From the IMG/VR virus record IMGVR_UViG_3300035670_000137, positions 1 through 64,000 of that record: 64,000 nt of DNA. The stretch is one strand, 5' to 3'. The DNA is from a virus. A model generated the notes under the pieces. It saw only the letters and a list, made by a program, of their open reading frames with translations, was not told the DNA's origin and searched no databases. This document shows, piece after piece, positions 3,455 through 39,827 of the stretch. Both the position numbers and the translations under genes were made by a program. Positions within the stretch are counted from its first letter, which is position 1, and each line of letters starts with the position of its first letter.

Positions 3455-6400
3455 TTAATATCCTTTTACAAACCAACTTACATTATACGTACCAAATGTA
3501 GGAGGTGAACCAGTTGATGAATTGAATAAATATACTCTAAAACTTTGTGGGTACCCTATTGCATTACCTGAAGTATTGCTACCAACTAGGGTAAATGTAA
3601 AAGTATTTGCTGTATAAGATGTTATAGTAAATATACCTGACAGTGCAGTACCTGAAGAGAAATAAACTCTTACATTCTGCCCCGTTATTAGTCCATGCCC
3701 AGTGGCTGTAACTGTGCAGGAATTACTAGTCAGAGTATATGCTCCGGTAAGTACCGTATCTTTATAATCATATACAGTAGTTAAAGAACTACTAGAGTTA
3801 GGTGTAACTATTAAGCTAGTAACATCAATAAACTCTTTATTAAAGTTTATTACTTGCCCTTGTGATGTTACTGCTGCTGTGGCGGCATCCGATATGGATT
3901 TAGCATTAAGTAGTACATTTAAATTATGGAACTGTACTACATCATTTGCATCAGCTGAATTAACAGTTAGAGTTATACGTACGTATCTAAAATTAACTCC
4001 AAATACTTCCCATACTCCTGGATACGCTTTATAACTAGTATCATTCCCCGTCCAGCGCTCTCCAGAGTTAGCCCAGGAACTAATCTCTATCTTAGGTATT
4101 ATAGTAAGCGCACCACTATCAACACGGTCTAGAGAAGTTATAATCTTACTACTTCCTAGTATTGTGCCAATATCCCAGGTTTCTGAATATGAACCACTTA
4201 ATACAGTTGGAGATATAAATTTAGTATATCCGTCTGAAACTTGTGAATCTGGAGATGTCCAAGCATGGGTAGCTACAGTTACTGTTAGTCCTGAACCACT
4301 ACCAGATACAGTTGTGGTAGTTGTACCAGCTCCCGGAGCTACTGTGTAGTTACCAGGCTGTATAATTTGTAAGGTTGCCGCCGCGGATCCACTTAAAGTT
4401 AGTACTTTAGCGTGGGCCTTAATAGTGTTAGTACCGCCATTAATTTCTACTATATCTCCAATAGCATACCCTGTACCACCAGATACTATAGATATACTAT
4501 ATACACGTAAACTAGTAAAATGTTGCTGGTACTGTTCTGTAATATTAACTGGTAGTACTACGGAGCCATTTGTATATGGATCATATACAGCATTTGTATA
4601 GTCTACCGCTATTGTATTGCCATTGGTAGGGCTATTAATTACGGCATAATTAGTATTAAGAATCCCGTGGTAAACGAAATCAGGTGGTTCTGCAACTTCT
4701 GCTGTTCTACTTATAGGGTCCGATTCTACATTATCTGTGTCAACGGTAGCAATCCAATAAGTATACGTTCCCTTCTTAAGTTCTGTAATAGTTGTGAACG
4801 CACCGTCCTTACGACCTAAATCTAACGCTGTAGCCCAATTAGCACCAGTTCTAATAACATAGTGACTGACGGGTAGGGATGTAGGTTCTGGGGAAGTCCA
4901 AGTTAACATGACTGTATTATCAATAACTTGTGGGAAGAAATTAGTAGGTGGAACAGGTTTTAGCTTTTCCACAGTTTTCACATACCCAGTAGACTCACGT
5001 CTTAAATTATCTACAGTATATATTGTGAACTGTCTATTTCCTACCCAATCTGCAGGAAGTGTTATAGTATTAGAATTTGTCACATACTCTGTACTATTAT
5101 AAGCCACCTTATAATGCTTTAGACCAAACTGAGGATTTAAATTATTTGACCAAGTTAAAGTAACAGTAGCTGATGTACTAGAAGTATCAAAATATGAGTA
5201 TTCCGCTCCAGTTATATTAGGTACAATATCTGCGGTAAAAGCTACCATACGAACTACTGAAGAATACTCATTATCTGTATCGATAGCTTTTATATACCAA
5301 GTTCCATTACCTGTTATAGCATTAACAGGTACAGTTACAGATGTAGCATTTCCTTTGTATATAAAGTTACCTAAGCCCCAGTCCTCATCTATAATACGTA
5401 CTTCATATGCCGATATTGGTAAATATCCTGAATTAGAAGAAATAGTAGGAGAGGGCCAACTTAATACTACTGAAGTCCCATTTACTGATACAGTGACCTC
5501 CCCGACTTGGGCAGGTCTATACCTAGTAATAGTTTTTGTACTAATTGCGGATGACACTCCATTATTATCAATTACATAAATACTAAAATCTTTGGTATCT
5601 ATCCAATTTGCTTGAGTAATAAAGTTAGTAGCAGTCTGTACAAAATCTAAACCACTATATACTATTCTATAGTACTTAACTCCAAATTGTGGTGTTGCTT
5701 CCGGCCAGTTTAATCTAACCTGAGCTGCTGTAGCTTGATCATCAAAGAAATTAACTGATATGTTGTCTGAAACTATAGGAGATATAGTATTATAAATAAA
5801 TTGTGTAGACTGTGCCGTTGACCAACGATTTGTAGCATCTCTAGCTTTTATATAATAAGTATAAGTCCCTGTAGCTAGTAAGTTTACTATTGTACTAGTA
5901 CTAGTTCCATAGTATACTCTGTCTGCATCATTGGTTCCCCATCCTGAATTAATAGTACGAACTTCATATGCAACAACATCCAATGACTCACTCTCTGTCC
6001 AAGACAACTCTAATCCACTATTTACAGCGTTATTTGCAAATAATGTTGGTGGTGATGGTGGAACTAAGTCATCTAGTAGAATAGATCTCGCTAATACACT
6101 ATAATTATTTCTTGTATCGAATGCTTTAATATACCAGGTCTGTCCTAAACTATTAATAATATTAGGAACAATGGCTGTATTAGCCATACCACTATAAATA
6201 TAGTTAGAATCTCCCCAATTTTGATCATCTACACGTATTTCATATCCAGCCACAGGTAAAGATCCCTGTGTAGGGGGGTCCCAGGTAAAATTCATCACTA
6301 CTTCATTACTAATCTTGGTTAGAGATATAGTAGGTGAAGGCATTTGGCCTGGAGGCCCAATAGTAAGTAATTTATTAGTTACGTTAGACCTATTACCTAG

Positions 6401-9400
6401 TTTATCTACTACTACCCAACTTAGAGTACGATCAGAGGTCCAGTTGGCTGGAATTGTTACATAGGTAGCATTAACCCTGATTGGAGTTTCATTACCGTTT
6501 GTAAACTCATAGTAGTCTAACCCAAATAACGGAGATATTTGGACCCACTTAAACATAACTGTAGAGCTTGAAGTACTAGTCTCCTGAAAATCTGTATCTA
6601 TAGTACCTAAGAATACTGTAGGTACTGGTGCCGAATAGAAGCTAGCACTATTAGATACTGAAGTCTTAGAGTCGTCTGAATGTGTTAATATATTACCATA
6701 ATTTCTTACGGATTCCTGATTAATTGTAGGTATATCTAAAGAGTATGTTACAAAATTATTACCTGCATTAGTTACTGTAAATACACCGTTATAGTTATAT
6801 GGTATAAACTCTCTAACTATAATTTTTGTACCTATAGGGTAGGGTGTATAAACATATGGATTAAAATATATTGTTGCTGTTTTTAGTATATTATCGTATA
6901 CTACACTAGTTGTATTACTAGATATCCCGCTATAGTTGCCACTAGAGTCAATAGCTTTAATGTAATAAGTATCTGTACTTAGATAAGTTGGTGGAGTTAC
7001 TTTGCAGAAAGCCTCGGCACCTCGATATATATACCCACTATCTTCTCCCCAGTTAGTATCACTAGTACGTACTTCGTATCCCCATATATCTATTTCTGTG
7101 CTAGGATTCCATGATACTAACACGCTTGTATCACTCACTGAAGTGTTTATTCCAGATATTTGAGGAGGTGCTAGAGTTTTTCCATATACTATTGCGGTTG
7201 CAGTTGCTGGTATTAGTGTTAACCTACCTATAGCATTAAGTGCCCACACCTTTACTTCATATGTGCCTGGTACTACATCATTAAGATCAGCTTGTGGAGT
7301 ATTAATAAATATTTCTTCTGACCAATTGCCTACATCTCGTTTATACATTAATTTGTATCTATTTGCAAACTGTACTGGCTCCCAAGCCGCAGATAGTTTT
7401 ACAACTACGTTGCCTTTAGTAGCATATAGACTTTCTACTAATGTTAGAGATTGTGGGGTGGCTGGATTGGCTGATAAATTTGAATAGTCTCTTTGTTCTA
7501 ATTGTGTGCCGTTTTCAATATAACTATATTTTGTTGGTTCGTGTTTAACTGCAGTAATAGAGAAAATACTATTATCTTCTTCAGTTACTGCTAGTACACG
7601 GAATTGCTGTATTTCGACAGTATCTGCATATGCTACCCATATACTGCCAACTTGTGGTAGTTCTGGAAGTGCAGTAGATAAAGTTAATATATTTTCAGAA
7701 TTAATACTAGATATAGTAGCTGACTGTATAGTGCCATCTGCTTTAAAAGCATTGAAAGTATAAGTTTCGCCTACATCCATCTCCATGGCTGAGTCTATTT
7801 TAATATGGGTAGTATCTATACTTTGTACAACTCTACCACCTAAACGAACTCCTGCTCTAGCTGGATCGGCAACTTTAATAATATTACCAGGACGAGCCGT
7901 TGCACCCTCTAGACCTGTCTTAAAGCTTACTACATCTGTCTCATATTTTTCAGTATATAGAATCCATTCACCGACTCGGTGGGCTTGCCCACGACTGGTG
8001 CAGCCTACTGCTATTACATCTGTCTCTATAATACCATACTGTTTAACGGCTTCATCGTCTTGCACATATTCTACCTTAGGACGACACATATCTTTCATGT
8101 CGTTCCAAGTTACTAATGCTACTGTATGCCTAGTTTTTTCACTAGATCCTGAGTATGTGAATACTCCATCAATTACGTTAGCCTGTGAGAATAGATGTGA
8201 AGCATCTGCCGGGGCATCTTGAATAGCTGTAATTGTACCTGCTGACCAGTATAACATGCCTCTAAAGATGGAGGCCATATCATTAAGTACTTTAAAAGCA
8301 TCCTCTCTAGATTGAATATACATATTACATGTAAATCTAGGCTCTATCAGCCCATCCCCTAATCCAGATATTACTGGCTCATCGCAGTACTGTCCTATAG
8401 TGTATAAAGCCCATTTATCAACCAGTGCGTCATCTATGTAGTTTCCTAATCCATATCTATCGTTGGTTATAAGATCATATAAACACCAAGCGGGGTTATT
8501 GGACCAAGCAATTTTAAATGTGCCATCCCATGGCCCAGTATACGTGCGTTTTAAAGGGTCATAATTTACAGGTACTTTAATCTTTAATAGTTTAACATCA
8601 TATGCACGATTAGGTATACTGTCAAACTGAGAGGAGTCTATACTAATACCGACAATAGCTGAGTTTGGATACCTGAATTTACCGTATGTTATCTCTGTTT
8701 CTAGATCTAACCAAGTTTGATTACCGAGACTGCCTTTAATACTCTCATTAGTATTACGGGAGACTCTAGTCATCCAAGTACCTGGCTGTCCAAAAGGAAC
8801 GAATACACTTCTTTGATAGCGACTGCTAGCCTTACCAGATATAGAAATCTTGTTATCGTATCCTAGTTTGTACATCATATAAGACGTACATATACCATTT
8901 CCCGATGTTAGTATACGTATAGCCCTATCTGCTACCGCACCTACAGTAGAATAAAACGTAAGGCTATGTACTTGATTGCTTGGTAGTTCGGGCATAACAA
9001 CACTAATTATACCGCCAAGTAAAGACTCTTGTGTACTATAATCTGCGGACAGTGTTCCTGTAGCTATATTTGTCCAAGCTCCACCATTAGTAGATTCTTG
9101 TATGGTATAAGTAATATCGTCATAAGTAATAATATTACCTAACAATTTAGAAAATATAGAATTACTATTATGCGAGAAATTAACAGAAATGTATAAACCA
9201 GTAGTGCTGAAAGTATTAGTAGTTATAGTTGTAGCATTAGTAGTATTTGTATAGCTTTGTGCATTTTCCCAAATTGTACGAATAGAAGCTGGATACCAGC
9301 CTGAATCTGCTCCCAGAGTAGTAATATGTCTAGCATGTACTTCTAACTCTACAGATGTACCATTAGTATCGCCGGTTGTTGTATCCTGTACGAATAGTTG

Positions 9401-10270
9401 AGGTACTCCTATGGTTAAACGTACACCATCTAACTCCCCATTACTATTAGAGTAGGTACGTTCTACAGGTTCGGCAGCTAGCTGTGGTAAACTACCGTTT
9501 ACTGGTGTAATACCTTTAATGCGAGTATTAACTTCGCGTACACTTTCTACATTACTAAAACCGGCTATATATGATTGCTGTTGTGTACCAGTACGTGTAT
9601 CCCAAGAGAATCCTGAAAAATTATAAGTACCATCGAAATTCATTAAAGGAACTTCATTTAGGTATATAGACTTTTCTCCTGCAACCAGTCCTTCTATTTC
9701 CCCCTCACATAGTAGATCTACTACTTGTGCATAAGCTATAGAGCGAAGACTATCTGGGGCTTCTACTGCTGGGCGACTACCCCCTCCACCTTTACCTCCA
9801 CCACCTCCTTTAGAACCAACAATTGGGTATCGTGCAGCATATCCACCATTATGTACTCTAACATTATTACATATAAAAGTATGGTTTGGCTCTACAGTGA
9901 GATTGTATACAGGTTCTGCTTCTAGTACTTCTGCGGATATTATTGGACGAAGATGTCCCATACCATCTACTAGAGCATCTTTATTAGTCATTCCACCAAT
10001 ATCAATAAAATTATTATATTGGTTTAATACCCAGTGGTTAGGAGTTATATCAATAGATCCGTTCCAAAATCTTACGCGCAGTAAAGGTTCTGGATCTTCA
10101 TGAAAATGTGTTTCTACTACTTTGGATACAAAAACTTCACCCTTCTCATTAAAGGATAGAATCTCATCTCCAATTTGTACTTCTTCAATTGGTTTAGTAA
10201 GGCCATGTTCTAATTGGACTAATGAGCCCCTTCTAAAACATCCGCCTTTTGATCCAATAATACTAGTCAT
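3455..10270 (-). CDS. Central tail fibre / tip attachment protein (lambda gpJ-like, Fn3 repeats) with N-terminal Hint domain
   Basis: gpJ motifs (DLLCEGEIEGL, WSNNPAWCLYD, GCTSRGQAHRVG); repeated YEVR...WG...YxG...YYIKAxD units. Confidence 0.92.
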   Translation of the reverse strand: MTSIIGSKGGCFRRGSLVQLEHGLTKPIEEVQIGDEILSFNEKGEVFVSKVVETHFHEDPEPLLRVRFWNGSIDITPNHWVLNQYNNFIDIGGMTNKDALVDGMGHLRPIISAEVLEAEPVYNLTVEPNHTFICNNVRVHNGGYAARYPIVGSKGGGGGKGGGGSRPAVEAPDSLRSIAYAQVVDLLCEGEIEGLVAGEKSIYLNEVPLMNFDGTYNFSGFSWDTRTGTQQQSYIAGFSNVESVREVNTRIKGITPVNGSLPQLAAEPVERTYSNSNGELDGVRLTIGVPQLFVQDTTTGDTNGTSVELEVHARHITTLGADSGWYPASIRTIWENAQSYTNTTNATTITTNTFSTTGLYISVNFSHNSNSIFSKLLGNIITYDDITYTIQESTNGGAWTNIATGTLSADYSTQESLLGGIISVVMPELPSNQVHSLTFYSTVGAVADRAIRILTSGNGICTSYMMYKLGYDNKISISGKASSRYQRSVFVPFGQPGTWMTRVSRNTNESIKGSLGNQTWLDLETEITYGKFRYPNSAIVGISIDSSQFDSIPNRAYDVKLLKIKVPVNYDPLKRTYTGPWDGTFKIAWSNNPAWCLYDLITNDRYGLGNYIDDALVDKWALYTIGQYCDEPVISGLGDGLIEPRFTCNMYIQSREDAFKVLNDMASIFRGMLYWSAGTITAIQDAPADASHLFSQANVIDGVFTYSGSSEKTRHTVALVTWNDMKDMCRPKVEYVQDDEAVKQYGIIETDVIAVGCTSRGQAHRVGEWILYTEKYETDVVSFKTGLEGATARPGNIIKVADPARAGVRLGGRVVQSIDTTHIKIDSAMEMDVGETYTFNAFKADGTIQSATISSINSENILTLSTALPELPQVGSIWVAYADTVEIQQFRVLAVTEEDNSIFSITAVKHEPTKYSYIENGTQLEQRDYSNLSANPATPQSLTLVESLYATKGNVVVKLSAAWEPVQFANRYKLMYKRDVGNWSEEIFINTPQADLNDVVPGTYEVKVWALNAIGRLTLIPATATAIVYGKTLAPPQISGINTSVSDTSVLVSWNPSTEIDIWGYEVRTSDTNWGEDSGYIYRGAEAFCKVTPPTYLSTDTYYIKAIDSSGNYSGISSNTTSVVYDNILKTATIYFNPYVYTPYPIGTKIIVREFIPYNYNGVFTVTNAGNNFVTYSLDIPTINQESVRNYGNILTHSDDSKTSVSNSASFYSAPVPTVFLGTIDTDFQETSTSSSTVMFKWVQISPLFGLDYYEFTNGNETPIRVNATYVTIPANWTSDRTLSWVVVDKLGNRSNVTNKLLTIGPPGQMPSPTISLTKISNEVVMNFTWDPPTQGSLPVAGYEIRVDDQNWGDSNYIYSGMANTAIVPNIINSLGQTWYIKAFDTRNNYSVLARSILLDDLVPPSPPTLFANNAVNSGLELSWTESESLDVVAYEVRTINSGWGTNDADRVYYGTSTSTIVNLLATGTYTYYIKARDATNRWSTAQSTQFIYNTISPIVSDNISVNFFDDQATAAQVRLNWPEATPQFGVKYYRIVYSGLDFVQTATNFITQANWIDTKDFSIYVIDNNGVSSAISTKTITRYRPAQVGEVTVSVNGTSVVLSWPSPTISSNSGYLPISAYEVRIIDEDWGLGNFIYKGNATSVTVPVNAITGNGTWYIKAIDTDNEYSSVVRMVAFTADIVPNITGAEYSYFDTSSTSATVTLTWSNNLNPQFGLKHYKVAYNSTEYVTNSNTITLPADWVGNRQFTIYTVDNLRRESTGYVKTVEKLKPVPPTNFFPQVIDNTVMLTWTSPEPTSLPVSHYVIRTGANWATALDLGRKDGAFTTITELKKGTYTYWIATVDTDNVESDPISRTAEVAEPPDFVYHGILNTNYAVINSPTNGNTIAVDYTNAVYDPYTNGSVVLPVNITEQYQQHFTSLRVYSISIVSGGTGYAIGDIVEINGGTNTIKAHAKVLTLSGSAAATLQIIQPGNYTVAPGAGTTTTTVSGSGSGLTVTVATHAWTSPDSQVSDGYTKFISPTVLSGSYSETWDIGTILGSSKIITSLDRVDSGALTIIPKIEISSWANSGERWTGNDTSYKAYPGVWEVFGVNFRYVRITLTVNSADANDVVQFHNLNVLLNAKSISDAATAAVTSQGQVINFNKEFIDVTSLIVTPNSSSSLTTVYDYKDTVLTGAYTLTSNSCTVTATGHGLITGQNVRVYFSSGTALSGIFTITSYTANTFTFTLVGSNTSGNAIGYPQSFRVYLFNSSTGSPPTFGTYNVSWFVKGY
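9848..10240 (-). other. Hint (intein-like, BIL-A type) domain, aa 11-141 of gpJ
   Basis: C1 (CFRRGSLV), block B TPNH, block F VYNLTV, terminal HN followed by Gly. Confidence 0.88.
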
Positions 10271-31390: not shown

Positions 31391-32158
31391 TTATATACGG
31401 AAACATTCCGTTTCCCCTCCTCGATATTTAGGAAAAGTAGTTGGTACATACTTATACTCAGAGGTAGAATTTAACCACTTTTTTTCCAAGATAAGCGCTT
31501 CTGTCAGAGATAGACTAATATCTATTAATATCTCGTATGTTGGGTAACCTCTTAGTCGTTCTTTTATAGACCTTTGTGTTATACCTGCTTTAAAGAAGTC
31601 ATCTTCTAAAAAGTATACTAAGTATAAGATGGTCTCTCTATCTTTTATTAAAAATCCTTTTTTATTTGGGGGTACATTAGCTAACTCTAGAGCATTACTC
31701 CAGGTATTGAATCTATTTATGAAAGTATGCGCACATGGTATATTTTTATCTTTGATTCTATCAAAGTCTTCCATAGTGTACACTCCGCTACTGGCTAGAA
31801 TCTCCAATAACTCTTCATCTGTCCATTTTTGTATACCACCAGAACTTCTAGTTGTTTTACCAGCTAAAGAAACTGCAGTATTCCATGAGCCAAATCTATT
31901 TATGAAAGTATGCGCACATGGTACTCCATCAGTCCTATGTTTGTAGTTTGCCATTCTAGGATCTGGATCATTTTTTAAGAAGTTTATCAGTTCTTCGTCT
32001 GTGTATGTTTTATAAATTCGTTTTTGTAATCCAAGTCTTGCTCTTTTTACCTCTATAGATCCTTCTGATCTACCTAATTCTAAGCCTACCTGTTTATTGG
32101 TATAACCTTGTAAAAGAAATTCTTTTAATAAATCTTCTTCTTCTTGTGTCCATATCAT
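31391..32158 (-). CDS. Homing-endonuclease-associated repeat protein with GIY-YIG-like C-terminus
   Basis: Two PCAHTFINRFxxWxxA repeats; LYLVYF...KAGIT..SIKERL. Confidence 0.65.
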   Translation of the reverse strand: MIWTQEEEDLLKEFLLQGYTNKQVGLELGRSEGSIEVKRARLGLQKRIYKTYTDEELINFLKNDPDPRMANYKHRTDGVPCAHTFINRFGSWNTAVSLAGKTTRSSGGIQKWTDEELLEILASSGVYTMEDFDRIKDKNIPCAHTFINRFNTWSNALELANVPPNKKGFLIKDRETILYLVYFLEDDFFKAGITQRSIKERLRGYPTYEILIDISLSLTEALILEKKWLNSTSEYKYVPTTFPKYRGGETECFRI

Positions 32159-32189
32159 ATTAATTTAGTATAATTTATTAGTATAGGTA

Positions 32190-32220
32190 AAATTATAGCA
32201 TATTAACTAAATATTGTCAA
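32190..32220 (-). promoter_or_regulatory. sigma70-type late promoter
   Basis: TTGACA-N17-TATAAT on minus strand. Confidence 0.75.
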
Positions 32221-32404
32221 GTATATTTTTGTTGTATCCTACGAGATTAACAAAAATATTATTCAGTTTATAACACCTATTAGTATGTAGAATAATTCCT
32301 TTGGATACCGCGTGCGGGTGTGTCATTAGCTGGCACGGTTTATGCTAGTTTATTAACCGCCCTGGTCTATAAGCCTGGCTGATGGGAGCATAGAAAACTT
32401 TGAA

Positions 32405-32433
32405 TTGACATCGCAACCTGGCGCGACTACAAT
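32405..32433 (+). promoter_or_regulatory. Pre-early sigma70 promoter (others at 32624, 33217, 34453, 36210, 37521)
   Basis: TTGACA-N17-TACAAT; near-consensus siblings head each pre-early unit. Confidence 0.8.
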
Positions 32434-32465
32434 AACAACATCAGATAACGAAAGAGAAATAAAAA

Positions 32466-32621
32466 ATGTTTAACACTAATGGACACATGACACAAGATAA
32501 CTTTAATGCTGTTGCATCTAAGGATCTGTTTCGTGCCATCTGGATTGCAAAGCACATGGGCGTAGCTGATACGGTTATGCGTGCGTGGGTTGCTGCTGTT
32601 CTTGCTGTTCTGAAAAAATAA
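32466..32621 (+). CDS. Small pre-early hypothetical protein (51 aa, not in ORF track)
   Basis: ATG after promoter, open frame to TAA. Confidence 0.6.
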   Translation: MFNTNGHMTQDNFNAVASKDLFRAIWIAKHMGVADTVMRAWVAAVLAVLKK

Positions 32622-32681
32622 TCTTGACTTCTGATGTTGCTTGTTCTATAATATAATCTCACTGATACGAAAGGAAACGCC

Positions 32682-33029
32682 ATGACTGCAAAGACTGTTA
32701 ATTACACTCCTGAGCAAACCGCTGTTCTGATTTCGCGCTATGTTGATGAGAAGGTTAGCGTTGAGGCTATCGCTGCTGAATTCGGCAAGAGCGTGCGTTC
32801 CATTGTTGCCAAGCTTTCGCGTGAAGGCGTATATAAGGCTAAGGAATACACCACGAAAAAGGGTGATGCTCCGGTGAAGAAGGATGCGCTTGCATCTGAG
32901 CTGATGCTGTTGGTTGGCTTGACTGAGGCTGAAGCTGATAGCCTTGGCAAGGCTAATAAGACTGCCTTGGCTAAGATTCTGGCTATCGTTAAGGCTGCAA
33001 AGATTAGCAATGCTAATGATGTAAGCTGA
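32682..33029 (+). CDS. A2: T5 A2-like DNA-binding protein, copy 1
   Basis: KSVRSIVAKLSREGVY...SLGKANKTAL resembles T5 A2/D3 family. Confidence 0.7.
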   Translation: MTAKTVNYTPEQTAVLISRYVDEKVSVEAIAAEFGKSVRSIVAKLSREGVYKAKEYTTKKGDAPVKKDALASELMLLVGLTEAEADSLGKANKTALAKILAIVKAAKISNANDVS

Positions 33030-33094
33030 TGGATTATGGCACGGTTCCTGCTGTAAGCAGGGATCGTGCCAGGCTGAAAGAAAAAGGCCTTGAA

Positions 33095-33134
33095 AATCAA
33101 GGACTTAGGCCAGGGCCTGGGTAAGCTATTGATT
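33095..33134. repeat. Inverted IHF-box pair with 14-bp GC spacer (also 34273-34312, 36055-36094, 37396-37435, 38118-38157)
   Basis: WATCAANNNNTTA on each strand, identical spacing. Confidence 0.8.
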
Positions 33135-33163
33135 TATAACACTTAATTCTGCGCCTACGACCA

Positions 33164-33179
33164 TGGCACGGTTTTTGCT
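33164..33179 (+). promoter_or_regulatory. sigma54 -24/-12 box (also 36135 +, 37356 -, near-matches 32331, 33037, 33056, 38016, 38054)
   Basis: TGGCACG-N4-TTGCT exact consensus. Confidence 0.7.
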
Positions 33180-33263
33180 ATCCCTGGGCTTGTTACAATT
33201 TGTTACAATTAAGGGCTTGACTCTGCCATCCGATCAACTATAATTCAATCATAGCAAAACGAA

Positions 33264-33452
33264 ATGGAGATTGAAATGCTCAAGGTTATGTGTTCTGATT
33301 TGGCAACCGGTAATCGCAAGGTTTTCGCGGTTTGTGCAACTCCTAAAATGGCGCTTGGCATTCAAAAGCGTATGAATGAACGGAATGAGGAAGCTACTAA
33401 ATTTACTGGCAAAGCTATCCGTTTCGTTTATTTCGTTGTTCGTTCGAGGTAA
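33264..33452 (+). CDS. Hypothetical pre-early protein
   Basis: ORF right after promoter, GGAG SD before ATG 33276. Confidence 0.55.
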   Translation: MEIEMLKVMCSDLATGNRKVFAVCATPKMALGIQKRMNERNEEATKFTGKAIRFVYFVVRSR

Positions 33453-33550
33453 ATCATGGAATACTTCATTGGCTTAATTGTTCTGCTGCTTGTTCCTGAG
33501 ATCCTGAATTCGGTTATTGATGCCGTCAAAGAATGGGAAGAATTGACAAA

Positions 33551-33928
33551 ATGAAATACGACGTTGTTAAACTCCACGCTTTCGCTAATAAAATCGCCGT
33601 TGCTTTTTGGGATTATGCCAAGCAATATTGGCGTGAGGATATTGGCGAAATGCCGGAAATTCGGATGAATTCGCGATTGACTAGCACTGCCGGTCGCGCT
33701 TTTCTTCAAGATAACTATGTCGATTTGTCTTGCTATCTGTTGCAGAATAACCCCGAATATTTCCGCATCGATACTATTCCACATGAATTGTGCCATCATA
33801 TTGCTTTCCGTATTTATGGTGATCGTGGTCACGGTAAGGGTTGGAAATATGTAATGAAATCGATGGGATTATCCGGTGATCGTTGTCATACGAGGCAAAC
33901 TAAATATCAAGCTGAAAGGGCTAAATAA
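33551..33928 (+). CDS. SprT-like zinc metalloprotease
   Basis: RLTSTAGRA...HELCH...HGKGWKYVM. Confidence 0.8.
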   Translation: MKYDVVKLHAFANKIAVAFWDYAKQYWREDIGEMPEIRMNSRLTSTAGRAFLQDNYVDLSCYLLQNNPEYFRIDTIPHELCHHIAFRIYGDRGHGKGWKYVMKSMGLSGDRCHTRQTKYQAERAK

Positions 33929-34245
33929 TGTCATACGTTACTATTAATAAACATGATGCTGGTATTCTGTTTAATACTGCGGAATTGGCTGCGTTGGCCG
34001 TATTTAATAAATATGAGCAAACGATTAAAGAATACTATGCTGATAGGATTACAACTAAAAAGATTCTGGGGATTAGCTTTAAGGTTGATAATTCTAGAAT
34101 GCAGGACGAAATGTCAATAATTATTCCTAAATATAGGGTTAAAGAGACAATTGATAAGATTCGGCAATTGAATGCAATGCTTGAATACGCCGATGAAATG
34201 AATATTTCAACAAAAGACTGGGAAATTATTACTCGCTATATGTGA
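33928..34245 (+). CDS. Hypothetical pre-early protein
   Basis: TAATG-coupled ORF. Confidence 0.6.
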   Translation: MSYVTINKHDAGILFNTAELAALAVFNKYEQTIKEYYADRITTKKILGISFKVDNSRMQDEMSIIIPKYRVKETIDKIRQLNAMLEYADEMNISTKDWEIITRYM

Positions 34246-34513
34246 GCACTTACCAACCAAAAAGGTCTTTAGAATCAAGGGCTTAGCGGGGCCCTGGCCT
34301 AACCCCTTGATTTATAAGGGGTTAGGCCAGAAACGCACCAACCTGGGGCGCGCCGATTTTACCACGGCCGGCGTGGAATGTCAATAGGCCGCGGCATCAA
34401 ATGTTTTTATGGGCGCATAAAAATTACTTCGAAAAAATTTTTGCGAAAACGCTTGACAGCCTGGGGCAATGGGCGCATAATACGTTCATCAAATAACGAA
34501 AGGTAATAAACAA

Positions 34514-34987
34514 ATGTCAATTAAGCGTGTTCAGATTTACGATATGGATGGAACCATTGTGGATTCCACGCATCGTTATCGGACGATTTCGGAAAATGGA
34601 ATCGAAAAGATTGATCTTGAATATTGGCGTGCTAATGAATATCGCGCAATGGATGATTCATTGCTTCCGCTTGCAGATCAATATAAGGCTGATTTGGCTG
34701 ATCCTGAATGCTATGTTATTATCGCAACTGCTCGCGTTCTGAATGAACCGGATATTAAATTCATTAATGAAATTCTCGGGAAACCGGATTATATTATTTC
34801 TCGGAAACCGGATAGCAGCATTTCCGGCGGTGTTTTAAAGGTTAATGGATTGCGTAAATTCTTTAATCTCAAGAATTTCAAAAATGCTGCGTTTGTGTTT
34901 TATGAGGATAATGCAGCATATCTGAAAAAGGTTTGCGATACTTTTAAAATCTCCGGTGTATATTGTCCGTCTAATCAGGGTCACTAA
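34514..34987 (+). CDS. dmp: HAD deoxynucleoside-5'-monophosphatase (T5 Dmp-like)
   Basis: YDMDGTIVDS.HR, DSLLPL, IATAR, FYED. Confidence 0.8.
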   Translation: MSIKRVQIYDMDGTIVDSTHRYRTISENGIEKIDLEYWRANEYRAMDDSLLPLADQYKADLADPECYVIIATARVLNEPDIKFINEILGKPDYIISRKPDSSISGGVLKVNGLRKFFNLKNFKNAAFVFYEDNAAYLKKVCDTFKISGVYCPSNQGH

Positions 34988-34991
34988 AATC

Positions 34992-35687
34992 ATGGCTAAA
35001 AAAGAATATTTCCTCATTGTTGATACTGAAACGACGGCGAATGATACTGTTTTCGATTTCGGTGCGGTTGTTTGTGATCGCAAGGGTAATATTGTGCAGA
35101 AATGCGCGATTATCGTAAAAGAGGAATTGGATAAAGATTTGTTCTTTGATCCGAAAGCGGAAGGCATTTGGTCGCGTCAATATGCGAATAAGAAAAAAGC
35201 CGGTTATCTGGAAATGATTAATAATGGTAATCGGATGGTCGCATCTGTTGCCGCTGTTAATCGTTGGCTTGAAAAGGTAGCGGCTAAATATAATCCGACT
35301 ATTACCGCTTATAATTTCGCTTTTGATCGTGAGAAATGCGCGAAAACCGGAATTGATTTGTCGATGTTTAATTCTAGCTTCTGCCTTTGGCATTTGTCCT
35401 GCTCGATTTATGCTAAGACTAAGGCTTATCGGCAATTTATTCTCGATAATCATTATTTCGGTAATCGGACTAAATTCGGCAATATGACTTACAAAACCAA
35501 TGCCGAGGTTATGGCTCATTTTGTAACTGGTAATTATTCAGAAGAACCGCATACTGCAATTGAAGATGCTCAATATTATGAGCTTCCGATTCTGGTTTCT
35601 ATTCTGAAAAAGAAAGGCTGGAAAAATAAAATTGGAACCGCTTATAATTGGAAAGATTACCAATTAAAAGATAATTTTAAGGCTTAA
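34992..35687 (+). CDS. DEDDh 3'-5' exonuclease
   Basis: VDTETT, AYNFAFD, HTAIEDA. Confidence 0.8.
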   Translation: MAKKEYFLIVDTETTANDTVFDFGAVVCDRKGNIVQKCAIIVKEELDKDLFFDPKAEGIWSRQYANKKKAGYLEMINNGNRMVASVAAVNRWLEKVAAKYNPTITAYNFAFDREKCAKTGIDLSMFNSSFCLWHLSCSIYAKTKAYRQFILDNHYFGNRTKFGNMTYKTNAEVMAHFVTGNYSEEPHTAIEDAQYYELPILVSILKKKGWKNKIGTAYNWKDYQLKDNFKA

Positions 35688-36269
35688 TAGGAAAATATAA
35701 AATGAATACTTTAATTTATCGTGAAAATGGGAATATTGAACAAAAAGAATTCAAATCAATATATGAGGCTGCAAACTGGGTAAAAGAAAATACCGGATAT
35801 TTTGAGGCAAATGAGAATATTTTAATTGTTGATTGGAAAATGAAAGAACAGCAATGGTTCCAATTGCAATTAACTATTAAATTGGTTGAATTAGAATAAT
35901 ATTATAAATATGGCTGATATACTATTTATAATCTGGATAATATATTGGCTATATATTGCCTTTATTGCTGAATAATATTATAAATAGGTCTTATATAAGA
36001 CCTATTTTTTCGGCCAGGATGTAAGCGAGCACTCACTCCAGAAAAAGCCTTTAGAATCAAGGACTTAGGTGGAGGCCCCGCTAACCCCTTGATTTATAAG
36101 GACTATTTTTCGACTATCAATGACTTACAGAACATGGCACGCTTCTTGCTTCAATCCTGGCTCATAAGAAATTTTTATGCTAGGATAGAAATTACTTCGA
36201 AAAAAGTTCTTGACAAGATGAAACGGTCGGAGCATAATATGCCCATGTTAAACGATAGGATTAATTGAA

Positions 36270-36479
36270 ATGATTGCTTGGATTGGTACGATTTGCGGTA
36301 TTATTGGTGCTTTGCTTGTTGCCGCTAATAATGGTCATCAGGACATTGGTTATATGTTCTTTTTGGTAGGTGCGGGTTTTTCTCTTGCATCATCGATCAA
36401 AGAAAAGCACAAAGCGAATATCGCTCTTTGGTCGGTTTTCTTTTCGATTAATGTTTATGGATTGATGCGTTATGTCTAA
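36270..36479 (+). CDS. Small membrane protein
   Basis: Three hydrophobic segments; follows promoter. Confidence 0.6.
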   Translation: MIAWIGTICGIIGALLVAANNGHQDIGYMFFLVGAGFSLASSIKEKHKANIALWSVFFSINVYGLMRYV

Positions 36480-36825
36480 GAAATTGGAAAATGAGGTTAA
36501 GCGATTCGCTTATGATTTTATGGAAAAAATGGGCTGGAAACCTGTCCATATTAATCGGATCAAAATCTCTAATATGCGTCGTTATAAGGGATTGTGTATA
36601 ACTGAAGATTGCGAATCGGTTTATATCATCCTGAGCGAGCATACTCACGACAACAATAAGGATTTTTTCGCTACGCTTATTCATGAATTGATCCATGCAC
36701 ATTTGCTGATTAATAAGCATAAGTTTATGTCACATCATAAGCATGGCAAAATGTTTAAGCGTTACGCTAAAAAGGTTGAAAAGAAAACAAACGGATATTA
36801 TACTGTCGAGGAAATCGTAAAATGA
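36472..36825 (+). CDS. SprT-like metalloprotease
   Basis: TLIHELIHAH...HGKMF. Confidence 0.7.
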   Translation: MSKKLENEVKRFAYDFMEKMGWKPVHINRIKISNMRRYKGLCITEDCESVYIILSEHTHDNNKDFFATLIHELIHAHLLINKHKFMSHHKHGKMFKRYAKKVEKKTNGYYTVEEIVK

Positions 36826-37618
36826 AAAAGACTTTCGAGGAATGGAAAAAGCAGGTTGATCTGGAAATCGAAAAGCGTGCTTATGGCTTGAATTCTGACG
36901 ATCTGCCCGATTATGATTATTGGGCTGAATGGGAAGCCGGAGAATCTCCGGTTTTTACTGCAAAGGCTGCAATTCAAAACGCGAAGGATTATTAAAATGG
37001 AATTCGATCTAGTTGATGAAATGATGTGGGAAGATTTAATTGATTTTGAATCTCTTGAATCTGTCGGGCTTGAGGATTCATATTGTGGAGATACTGTTCC
37101 GGCGGCCCAGGCTGTATATTACTCGGAGGAAATGTGATATGATAAAACTCGTTATTTCTTTTGATGAATTCGAAGGCGTATTAGGTCATCTTGATCCGCA
37201 TTTGGATGCCGCTTGCCAAGCAATGGAAGCATATAACGATTGGCTTTGCGATTATCTGGAAAATCAATTCCCTGATTGGGATATTGAACTGGCATTTGAT
37301 TTTAATAATGCCGAATGGGATTTTGATAATACCGAGGTACATATTCCAATGATCGTGCAATAATCGTGCCAGCAAAACCCCGAAAAGTCCTTACAAATCA
37401 AGGACTTAGCGGGGCCCCTGGCTAACTCATTGATTTTAAAGGCTTTTTTCGGCGTATGACAGCATAATATCCTGGGCTTGTCCAATCAAATTTTTCTATA
37501 TGAGGATAGAAATTTTCGTGTTGCTTTGCCGAATCCGATTCTGTATAATTCTTTACATGGGATGACGAACTGGCTCAACGAAATCCCAAACCCTAAACCG
37601 AGCCACTAGGAAAATGCT

Positions 37619-37957
37619 ATGACCAAGACCGTCAATTATACTCCGGAACAAACCGTTGAACTCGTTTCCGCTTATACCGCGAATCCGTCGCAAGAAACTG
37701 TTGTGATGTTTGCCGAAAAGCTCGGCAAGTCGGTTCGGTCGATTGTTGCCAAACTCTCCCGCGAGGGCGTTTATAAGGCCAAGGAATACACGACCAAGAA
37801 GGGTGAAAAGCCGGTCAAGAAGGATTCGATGGCTGACGCTATCGGTGCGGTTCTCAAGCTGACCGAAGCTGAAACCGATTCGCTTGCGAAGGCTAACAAA
37901 ACGGCTCTTGCCAAGATTTTCGAGGCTCTTGCCAATTCCAAGCCGATCGACGGCTAA
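37619..37957 (+). CDS. A2: T5 A2-like protein, copy 2
   Basis: Near-identical core to 32682-33029. Confidence 0.7.
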   Translation: MTKTVNYTPEQTVELVSAYTANPSQETVVMFAEKLGKSVRSIVAKLSREGVYKAKEYTTKKGEKPVKKDSMADAIGAVLKLTEAETDSLAKANKTALAKIFEALANSKPIDG

Positions 37958-37975
37958 AAGCAAAAAGCATACCAG

Positions 37976-38000
37976 ATACCCGCTTCGGCGGGTATTTTTT
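37976..38000 (+). terminator. Intrinsic terminator
   Basis: ATACCCGC-TTCG-GCGGGTAT-TTTTT. Confidence 0.8.
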
Positions 38001-39139
38001 CGTCCCGAGCCAGGCGGGCACGATTCTTGCGCCCAAATTTTGTGCCAGCGCCTGGGCATGATAATTGCTAATAGGAATCGCACGTAACCCATTGATTCAC
38101 TAAAAATAAGCCTTTACAATCAAGCACTTAGGGCCGGGGCCCCATAAACCTTTGAAAGTCAAGACAATTTTTTCGAACCTTATCAGGCACTTACCTCCGC
38201 CGACCATCACCTAAGTTGCCGCCGCCAGCGCGCGAATCAAGGACTTACGTCACGAACCTCCAAAAATTCATCCATCAAATCAACCACTTATACCACCATA
38301 AATCCGCAGCTCCGCTGCGCCTGAGTGCAAAAACAGTGCAAATCCTAAATTTTCGAGGGCTGCCCCAAGCCTTGTCAAGTGCAAAAATCTCAACCTGCCA
38401 CCGCCGGACCGCTACACCAGTGCAGGTGCGAAAATTTTGAGGCCCCTGGCTGCGCCCATTATAAAGTGGGAAACCTGTGAGTGTCAAGACTAAATTTTCG
38501 AAGGTTGGACCTGGCGGCGAAATAAGTGAAGAACAATTAGTGCCTGGCTCGCGGCCTTCGCCGCAATTTGGCACGATTTATTTTCCATAGCGGCAATTTG
38601 GCACGATTTAGGGTCAAATTCAAACAATTTAGGACAATTTATGCGATTTGTGCGCTTTTTGCGACATAAGTACCGAATTTGGCACTTGTGCTCGGCGTGG
38701 TGGGCCGGATTTTAACCTATTCCAAACCGCTTCAGGCTTGAAATTTCTGTCTTGATATAAAAAACCGGAGCGACTATAATATAAAAATGTTGTGAAGCCC
38801 TGGCACTTTGGGAAACAATAAAAAATTTAGACTTGCGACACGGAGTTAAAGCGAATATAATATTTACATGATGTGAGAGAGGGGAACCAAGATGGATGAG
38901 GATAGAATCACTTCTTTTTGGTATGATACGTCGCTTGAATGGGGCGTTACCGTAGCAGAAGCATCAGATGAAAATGTTGTGTGTAGCATAGTAGCAGCGA
39001 TGTTTGAAGACGATGTACCGTTTTAACATCCTGACCCTAAATTGTAGCAAACCGTAGCAAATTGTTTTACACATTATCAATATTGGCTGAGGACTGCGAA
39101 GCCAAACAACCAAAACCAAATCAAGAAAGGCAGCAAATT

Positions 39140-39439
39140 ATGAACACGAAAGTCCAAAACTACTCCGCCGAAACCGTTGAAAAGATGGTGTTCGATTACA
39201 AAGCTGGTGTTGCTGTTGAGCAAATCGCTCAGGAAATCGGGAAGTCTGTCCGGTCTGTTGTGGCCAAGCTCTCTCGCGAAGGTGTCTACGTTGCTAAGAA
39301 GTCTGCTGCGAAGGCAGATGGCAAGGTCACCAAAGCTGATCTGATCGCTAAGATCGCCGCGAAGTTCGAAGTTGAGGCGGAAGTCCTGGCCTCCCTCGAA
39401 AAGGCTACCAAGGAAGCTCTCGAAGTTCTGGCAGCTTAA
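39140..39439 (+). CDS. A2: T5 A2-like protein, copy 3
   Basis: KSVRSVVAKLSREGVY...ASLEKATKEAL. Confidence 0.65.
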   Translation: MNTKVQNYSAETVEKMVFDYKAGVAVEQIAQEIGKSVRSVVAKLSREGVYVAKKSAAKADGKVTKADLIAKIAAKFEVEAEVLASLEKATKEALEVLAA

Positions 39440-39827
39440 TCAAATTTAGGGTCGGGTGAGCAAAAGATCCTGACCCTAAATTGCTACATGGGCGAAGTGA
39501 GAAATTGCTTTCCCTAAACCGCAGCAGGTTGATCACCAAGTGACCGGCTTGCTGCGATTAGAGTAAGAGCAATAAGTCTTAGGTGCGTAGAGACTATAAA
39601 AGTGACGCATACCGTAATGGGGAAAACATGTAGAAATTTTACATTAACGAAACCCGTCCTAGTGCTCACTAGAGATTTAACTGTTAGAGCTATGAGCAAG
39701 CTAACTAACGTCGGAGAAAGTAACCGACCCTAAATTGCAGCATATCGAAAGGTATGCTGCATTTTTTGTATCTACTCATTTCACCAAAGAAAAAGCCAGG
39801 TCTGATTTCTCAGCCTGGCTTTTTTGC

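Follow-up and report, generated by a model that had tools for sequence, protein, structure and literature searches.

The DNA analyzed here (the window) is the first 64 kb of the 76.8-kb linear IMG/VR virus contig IMGVR_UViG_3300035670_000137, and its positions 32331-38069 carry an array of eight short bipartite boxes that resemble the -24/-12 sites of sigma-54 RNA polymerase. The contig originates from a subsurface metagenome, is 73% complete according to CheckV, and has a G+C content of 40%. Its DNA was found in four sequencing runs, all of them DNA runs of one study (three subsurface and one soil, the soil run with a small word share). Structural genes occupy the minus strand throughout 168-32158, and the portal is 42% identical to the portals of Vibrio phage pVp-1 and Pectobacterium phage DU_PP_V, both members of Demerecviridae; we assign the contig to a distant T5-like phage. 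Small plus-strand genes fill 32466-37957. Among them, a short dmp-like HAD phosphatase gene (34514-34987, plus strand), whose product is 33-39% identical to dmp of T5-like phages, marks the region, and we therefore equated this region with the T5 pre-early region. The order of late genes, dmp/A2-type genes and a gene-free region is common to the contig, pVp-1, Wyman and T5 (terminal repeat collapsed), so that "pre-early spacers" is a fair name for the intergenic DNA. By this comparison the stretch 32331-38069 is the pre-early/terminal-repeat equivalent; the contig is collapsed and incomplete, and a physical terminal repeat cannot show in such sequence.

The boxes are listed below, with mismatches counted against TGGCACG-N4-TTGCW.

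32331-32346, plus strand: sigma-54-type box TGGCACGGTTTATGCT with one mismatch; its -12 C is 95 bp upstream of the start site of the co-directional sigma70 promoter at 32405
33037-33071, both strands: face-to-face boxes TGGCACGGTTCCTGCT at 33037(+) and TGGCACGATCCCTGCT at 33056(-), one mismatch each, forming a perfect palindrome directly after the stop codon of the first A2-like gene
33164-33179, plus strand: exact box TGGCACGGTTTTTGCT, 30 bp past an IHF pair; the sigma70 promoter at 33217 has its start site 73 bp downstream of the -12 C
36135-36150, plus strand: exact box TGGCACGCTTCTTGCT, preceded by a terminator and an IHF pair; 96 bp separate its -12 C from the downstream start site of the sigma70 promoter at 36210
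37356-37371, minus strand: exact box TGGCACGATTATTGCA, antisense to the end of the gene at 37142-37363 and 25 bp before an IHF pair
38016-38031, plus strand: box GGGCACGATTCTTGCG with two mismatches, sharing 15 of 16 bases with TGGCACGATTCTTGCG; just past the terminator of the second A2-like gene, at the edge of the gene-free region
38054-38069, plus strand: weaker box GGGCATGATAATTGCT with two mismatches, 38 bp past the 38016 box

A preliminary description of this DNA had placed exact boxes at 33164(+), 36135(+) and 37356(-) and near matches at 32331, 33037/33056, 38016 and 38054. All of these coordinates were confirmed, as were the face-to-face palindrome and the location of the boxes in, or at the edge of, intergenic spacers: the eight boxes, all within 32331-38069, are non-coding, with 37356(-) overlapping the end of one gene (its stop codon, which ends at 37363, and the three codons before it). 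A degenerate tandem copy of the latter box lies at 37345(-). The motif is enriched over shuffled sequence, with three exact matches found versus 0.01 expected and none of 100 shuffles reaching three, whereas two-mismatch matches are expected 5.2 times in the window. GG-N10-GC is kept in all six boxes with zero or one mismatch, and the sigma-54 consensus is matched at 11-12 of its 12 specified positions with exact spacing. When the whole contig was scanned, six of the seven matches with zero or one mismatch, and six of six for TGGCAC-N6-TGC, fell inside 32331-37371. A gene lies downstream in the same direction, 100-135 bp from box to ATG, for the boxes at 32331, 33164 and 36135; the other five (33037, 33056, 37356, 38016 and 38054) aim at no gene. 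Four boxes have a terminator (36135, 38016 and 38054) or a hairpin (33164) ahead of them, and an elongating polymerase would therefore seldom sweep them.

Searches of the region against 50,697 phage records at the nucleotide level, in near and distant modes, gave no match, so relatives were retrieved through the dmp-like protein, which yielded 42 related IMG/VR loci (61-73% identity). Spacing was analyzed in these 42 relatives, the window region and the pVp-1 pre-early stretch. TGGCAC-Nk-TGC occurred at 37 sites (26 non-redundant) when k was 6 and at only 2-7 sites at each other k from 0 to 15. Among the sixteen half-site orders tested, TGGCA-N6-TTGCT alone was clearly enriched (16 non-redundant sites); reversed and same-half combinations were mostly flat, with a modest rise of TTGCA/TTGCA at N4 (11) and N6 (7). 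A protein reading T[GT]GC[AT] twice was considered and rejected: because only the TGGCA...TTGCT order is enriched, a simple direct-repeat binder is unlikely.

One site is conserved in place among the relatives. TGGCACGATTCTTGCG is kept in at least 12 of them, about 4 kb to the right of dmp, at the border between the conserved block and unrelated downstream DNA, where it aims into gene-free DNA upstream of a backward promoter. The window box at 38016 is probably its counterpart, as judged from sequence and place instead of flank alignment. In this clade, about 20 of the 26 intergenic boxes have the -12 C 61-96 bp upstream of a sigma70 start site (promoters matching at 11-12 of 12 positions), in either orientation. 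Six boxes are co-directional with the sigma70 promoter, namely those at 32331, 33164 and 36135 in the window and those in loci L010, L027 and L041; the others, including the conserved site, are divergent. The face-to-face architecture recurs in L013, L017, L045 and Vibrio phage D133. There are six matches in G001, a complete relative (five lie in the pre-early region), and two in another relative (G002).

The array is not peculiar to the window phage. TGGCAC-N6-TGC was scanned over the whole 111-128-kb genomes of cultured T5-like phages, with the following matches.

pVp-1: two of two matches in the pre-early repeat regions
Wyman: two of two matches in the terminal repeats, one per repeat
D133: four of four matches within 6.7 kb upstream of dmp
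VB_Vhy_SJ1: five matches, four in the terminal repeats and one about 250 bp outside the right repeat
vB_ValS_X1: three of three matches within 6.7 kb of dmp

All of these matches read TGGCACG-N4-TTGC, and the Vibrio phages phi 3 and JSF12 also carry boxes. The pre-early/terminal-repeat region has no box in six phages of enterobacterial hosts, namely T5, fp01, Slocum (Serratia), PSTCR5 (Providencia), DU_PP_V (Pectobacterium) and a Klebsiella phage, and Aeromonas phage AhSzw-1 was ambiguous. The preliminary description had known of no such array in T5-like phages. By sequence this was wrong, given the boxes in pVp-1, Wyman, D133, SJ1, X1, phi 3, JSF12 and uncultured relatives. Its view of the boxes as a sigma-54 array stands in part: the bipartite motif is selected and comparison favors a host factor. 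The roles that it suggested for them (a clamp or ratchet in DNA entry, a roadblock, a sigma-54 sponge or a sensor of the host's nitrogen state) are conjectural. The boxes in cultured phages are the main new result of this study, which also adds the tests of spacing and order and the DnaA/LexA neighborhood. Our literature searches, of incomplete coverage, turned up no publication that describes sigma-54 or LexA sites in such phages.

In pVp-1 and Wyman, the box belongs to a module that consists of ATAAAATA, TGGCAC-N5-TTGCT, 10 bp, the DnaA box TTATCCACA, a LexA-like site, two DnaA boxes and a perfect LexA box (CTGTAT-N4-ATACAG). The box-DnaA-LexA module is present in 58 Vibrio phage records. 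The inner end of the annotated left terminal repeat of phi 3 is 0.4-0.5 kb away from the module, which thus occupies the place of the T5 injection stop signal (iss). When six Vibrio phages representing at least three genera were aligned, TGGCAC and TTGC did not vary except for one N base call (PVo5), and the DnaA and LexA boxes are likewise kept, whereas the 5-base spacer varies (GATTC, GATTT and AGATA) and the upstream flank is unalignable. The strict LexA pattern is confined to this region in pVp-1, Wyman, D133 and T5 and is absent from SJ1; DnaA boxes are mostly in this region in these genomes. The 15 bases of TGGCACGATTCTTGC are identical in Wyman and the uncultured clade, the portals of which are only about 42% identical. 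The Vibrio-phage boxes are 200-1000 bp from genes or face genes head-on.

Two observations concern T5 itself (L050, NC_005859). Its perfect LexA (SOS) boxes CTGTATAAATATACAG occur only in the terminal repeats, at 6213-6228 and 9411-9426 with right-repeat copies at 117744 and 120942, and adjoin the DnaA boxes of Repeat Regions 2 and 3 (iss). The pairing of LexA and DnaA boxes is also seen in pVp-1, Wyman and D133; no mention of it was found in the Davison preprint or in the literature searched. The T5 iss also contains GCACGATTC (9489-9497), the core of the commonest box TGGCACGATTCTTGC, next to TTGACA and without the GG and the -12 element. We set this match aside as a coincidence or a remnant; four other T5-like phages of enterobacteria lack GCACGATTC in their repeats.

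In the window, the boxes are accompanied by the following elements and genes.

33095-33134: inverted pair of IHF-consensus sites; more pairs at 34273-34312, 36055-36094 (with a further site at 36115-36127), 37396-37435 and 38085-38130
33217-33244, plus strand: near-consensus sigma70 promoter (11 of 12 positions)
32405-32433, 32624-32652, 34453-34481 and 36210-36238, plus strand: further sigma70 promoters (11 of 12 each)
37521-37549, plus strand: sigma70 promoter, read by eye
33190-33210: two near-palindromic TTGTTACAA repeats between the 33164 box and the sigma70 -35 element
32682-33029, plus strand: A2-like helix-turn-helix gene, copy 1, a paralogue of copy 2
37619-37957, plus strand: A2-like helix-turn-helix gene, copy 2, 67% identical to copy 1
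33533-33928 and 36472-36825: two SprT-like genes (PF10263, metalloprotease-type) among the pre-early genes
37958-39000 (right end approximate): gene-free, repeat-rich region in the place of the T5 injection stop region, with boxes, IHF sites and GTGCAAA repeats
37976-38001: terminator within the gene-free region
38487-38458, minus strand: backward consensus sigma70 promoter TTGACA-N18-TATAAT with a GGCGC tail and no gene to drive
34384-34356, minus strand: backward sigma70 promoter with a 17-bp spacer, TAAAAT and a GGCGC tail, and no gene to drive
38569 and 38599: half-boxes TGGCACGATTT in the gene-free region

The IHF consensus WATCAANNNNTTR was found 16 times versus 5.3 expected, and 13 of these sites fall within 33095-38290, most of them arranged in inverted pairs at a distance of 8-40 bp from a box; the 32331 box has no IHF pair. 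For the boxes at 33164 and 36135, the coordinates place IHF-consensus sites about 25-105 bp ahead of the start predicted for sigma-54 transcription. Two further statements of the preliminary description, that the boxes mostly stand beside IHF pairs and that the units have strong sigma70 promoters of their own, thus agree with our results, the latter through promoters matching at 11 of 12 positions at 32405, 32624, 33217, 34453 and 36210. DnaA, LexA and Fur boxes were not found in the window region, and no consensus DnaA box occurs in 32100-39500. Alignment of the spacers revealed a common module of an IHF pair, a box, an A/T-rich block and a sigma70 promoter. Between spacer copies, only short motifs are kept and no long identical tracts, and the forward box is missing from spacers B (34246-34513) and D (37364-37618). 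Repeats of the form TTGT(T/A)ACAA, 10-11 bp apart and in the order box, repeats and promoter, are also present in L010, L020 and L027 and at the conserved site of at least 10 relatives; they resemble an operator that a dimeric regulator would bind. Backward consensus promoters with a GGCGC tail occur in L042 as well, at about 10190-10150 and 10530-10500. The half-boxes at 38569 and 38599 are part of a direct repeat, GGCAATTTGGCACGATTTA (38562-38580 and 38592-38610), which carries the -24 half TGGCACG without a -12 element.

Comparison of these genomes indicates that the motif is a real, selectively kept bipartite element with the halves, order and spacing of a sigma-54 -24/-12 site, and it is probable that sigma-54 binds the boxes. 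The host polymerase is favored over a phage protein because the sequence of the motif, the order of its halves and their spacing are all those of the universal sigma-54 consensus, though the A2-like proteins are barely alignable, and because the box accompanies undisputed host-protein sites (DnaA and LexA). The hosts of the cultured relatives are Vibrio species, and Vibrio has rpoN. The closed complex of sigma-54 polymerase is stable and silent without an activator. We infer both that the sigma-54 holoenzyme binds here and that binding, rather than firing, is what matters; an IHF-flanked closed complex could insulate, mark or block. The boxes may well be docking sites for the host sigma-54 RNA polymerase holoenzyme on the first-entering phage DNA that act by occupancy, a proposal whose chances we consider evenly balanced. 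They would be part of a kit of host-protein sites in non-coding modules, composed of IHF-type pairs in the window and of DnaA, LexA and Fur-like sites in relatives, Vibrio phages and T5. An activator-dependent polymerase would be parked on the box with IHF-bent DNA alongside, and would serve as a mark or an insulator for every strong promoter unit and for the border of the gene-free stop region. Occupancy is the likeliest action because most intergenic boxes of this clade are 60-100 bp upstream of sigma70 start sites in either orientation, and several of those in the window come after a terminator or hairpin; ordinary gene expression is the less likely role.

Several findings weigh against the docking of sigma-54 polymerase. 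The number of boxes ranges from 0 to 6 among close relatives, with none in the 98% complete G003, and no single box can therefore be indispensable. Their orientation is conserved neither relative to genes nor between clades. Half-boxes TGGCACGATTT without a -12 element are present at 38569 and 38599, and TGGCAC-N5-TTGAC variants in pVp-1 and D133; the half-boxes are a hint of a possible reader of TGGCACGAT on its own. Conservation of ATTC in the spacer goes beyond the known needs of sigma-54 binding. The Vibrio-phage boxes are not beside recognizable sigma70 promoters, so the link between box and promoter is confined to the uncultured clade. In addition, the presence of rpoN in the host of the window phage is assumed.

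A different function is conceivable if sigma-54 polymerase does bind. The co-directional boxes at 32331, 33164 and 36135 could be working enhancer-dependent promoters that, with an IHF-aided host activator, serve the same pre-early genes as sigma70 and provide conditional, sigma70-independent expression, in which case the other boxes would give rise to antisense or non-coding transcripts. Since these three boxes have textbook promoter geometry, 100-135 bp before an ATG and in its direction, and two of them (33164 and 36135) have IHF-consensus sites suitably upstream, conditional firing stays a live rival, even if an unlikely one. Tandem sigma-54 and sigma70 promoters occur in bacteria (glnA), which also counts in its favor. 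The boxes resemble enhancer-dependent sigma-54 promoters with an IHF site (glnAp2, pspA, Pu and nifH) in TGGCACG-N4-TTGCW, in GG and GC 10 bp apart, in IHF sites tens of bp upstream and in the three gene-facing boxes. Unlike those promoters, the phage boxes are located on entry DNA, form arrays and face-to-face pairs, are mostly geneless and stand upstream of strong sigma70 promoters in either orientation. Neither an activator gene (PF00158, no match in the 73% complete contig) nor a shared upstream activator site (by eye) was found here, and the 32331 box lacks an IHF pair. Moreover, at least five of the eight boxes aim at no gene, the best-conserved site of the relatives aims into gene-free DNA, and the Vibrio-phage boxes are remote from genes or head-on to them. 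A sigma-54-like promoter with a mapped start site drives genes in Pseudomonas phage YuA (PMC10914365, citing Ceyssens et al. 2008). YuA is thus likewise a tailed phage with a host sigma-54 sequence, but it has a single promoter, as against an array of up to eight mostly geneless boxes here.

It is also doubtful, to a similar degree, that the boxes merely resemble sigma-54 sites and are read by another protein, either a duplicated A2-like helix-turn-helix protein or a host regulator. The two A2-like paralogues of the window (112-115 amino acids each) look like distant, shortened homologues of the T5-type A2 DNA-binding protein: their matches to the A2 of pVp-1 and Wyman are weak (E 1e-4 to 1e-3, small databases), a profile search matches them to T5 A2 (E 0.006), and they share about 33-36% identity over about 70 residues with Vibrio-phage A2. 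The family is large in metagenomes (2797 matches at E <= 0.001). One of the two genes stands beside the palindromic pair and the other just before the 38016 box. Palindromic pairs, TGGCACGATTT half-boxes, TTGAC variants and the kept ATTC spacer would suit a dedicated binder, and the placement of the boxes, 60-100 bp ahead of promoters and facing either way, is what regulator sites typically show. Against such a reader, the sigma-54 consensus is matched at 11-12 of 12 positions, spaced exactly, among phages that have barely alignable A2-like proteins, and in the Vibrio alignment the two sigma-54 elements are the only invariant parts of the box and their neighbors are undisputed consensus sites for host proteins. 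Furthermore, T5 has A2 without boxes, and G003 has an A2-like protein (P0115) without a strict box. The AlphaFold model of the A2-like protein (pLDDT 83) consists of two three-helix bundles, as in generic helix-turn-helix proteins, and is unlike the DNA-binding domain of sigma-54. Foldseek with this model gave nothing better than E 0.1 and no sigma-54 match, and sequence and profile searches of PDB gave no match. The sequence VRSIVAKLSRE had suggested that the A2-like protein mimics the sigma-54 DNA-binding domain; Pfam returned only weak Sigma70_r4 matches, and with the PDB and Foldseek results this idea was rejected.

Far less probable is the absence of any protein-specific role, with the boxes as passengers in spacer cassettes that recombination maintains by gene shuffling (comparable to PeSLs in T4-type phages) or as RNA or DNA hairpins. 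The spacers are indeed modular and repeated, and the palindrome at 33037-33071 is a strong hairpin (as RNA, 16 bp, -28.6 kcal/mol, z -6.3). However, the spacer copies have only short motifs in common; single boxes fold no better than shuffles (z -0.2 to -1.6), and Rfam gave no match below E 0.5. Neither a hairpin nor a tract for recombination would preserve the sigma-54 consensus in both arms, or in phages without alignable flanks. Chance matches in AT-rich, repeat-rich DNA could account for only the weak two-mismatch matches and are a negligible prospect, refuted by the box counts with their excess of exact matches, the single peak at k=6 and the restriction to one region in eight independent genomes.

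The occupancy of boxes by sigma-54 polymerase can be extended to DNA entry, although we regard this extension as a long shot. The sigma-54 boxes and IHF sites, with DnaA, LexA and Fur sites in other lineages, would form a host-protein complex on the entry DNA that is part of the checkpoint in two-step transfer. Activator-driven release of a polymerase parked at the edge of the stop region, for instance upon membrane stress, would license the remaining genome or help to pull it in. To our knowledge, the stop and restart of DNA entry in T5-like phages has been an open problem for over fifty years, the stop region being known only as a maze of conserved repeats with DnaA boxes as the sole proposed link to the host. 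T5 A1 is required for second-step transfer. No A1 homologue was found by tblastn of the 73% complete contig and of loci L010, L042 and L023 with T5 or pVp-1 A1 as the query; the clade may be without A1, or its A1 may be too diverged to detect.

Like Repeat Regions 1-3 and iss in the left terminal repeat of T5 (Davison), the window region separates the pre-early genes from the early region, adjoins dmp and A2-type genes, and contains conserved repeats, inverted repeats, palindromes and host-protein motifs. In contrast to the T5 repeat, which has no sigma-54 box, the window uses IHF pairs and sigma-54 boxes without DnaA, LexA or Fur sites; in the Vibrio relatives the sigma-54 box is part of the DnaA/LexA module, and the inner end of the repeat is about 0.4-0.5 kb away. 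The paired DnaA boxes in inverted repeats that Davison described in T5, and the A1 gene, were both not found in the window phage. The analysis of the T5 stop region names DnaA boxes and, in passing, IHF and FIS, and leaves sigma-54, LexA and Vibrio phages unmentioned (Davison, bioRxiv 10.1101/866236).

If the docking proposal is true, it would be a rare case of a virus using a sigma-54 site for binding instead of gene expression. Orphan and intragenic sigma-54 sites have reportedly been located by genome-wide mapping in E. coli and Salmonella (Bonocora et al. 2015; Samuels et al. 2013, cited in PMC8744999). Those high-affinity sites are occupied without driving a classical gene, as is proposed here, but are scattered on the chromosome, whereas the phage boxes are clustered and conserved in a fixed virus module. 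More generally, the stop-type region carries, lineage by lineage, consensus sites for several host proteins, including the sigma-54 polymerase site in aquatic lineages and, in T5, perfect LexA boxes confined to the terminal repeats, and the entry-stop question becomes a set of simple tests. Infection by the Salmonella T5-like phage Aji_GE depends on rpoN and himA/himD, which was traced to RpoS and glutamine (PMC8744999). We did not use this dependence as evidence for the boxes, since the cause given by its authors is not a site on phage DNA.

Two other sequence elements accompany these regions. A repeat TTTGCAC(C)/GTGCAAA is present in many copies in the gene-free stop-type region, at 38326-38440 in the window, at 7380-7850 in pVp-1 (L051) and at 40-310 in Wyman (L057). 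Fur-box-like palindromes (GAATCATTATCATTC and AATGAGAATCATTC) occur in stop-type regions, in T5 (L050, 9555-9620), in pVp-1 (L051, about 8300-8325) and, just to the right of the sigma-54 box, in L008, L010, L024, L025, L028 and L034.

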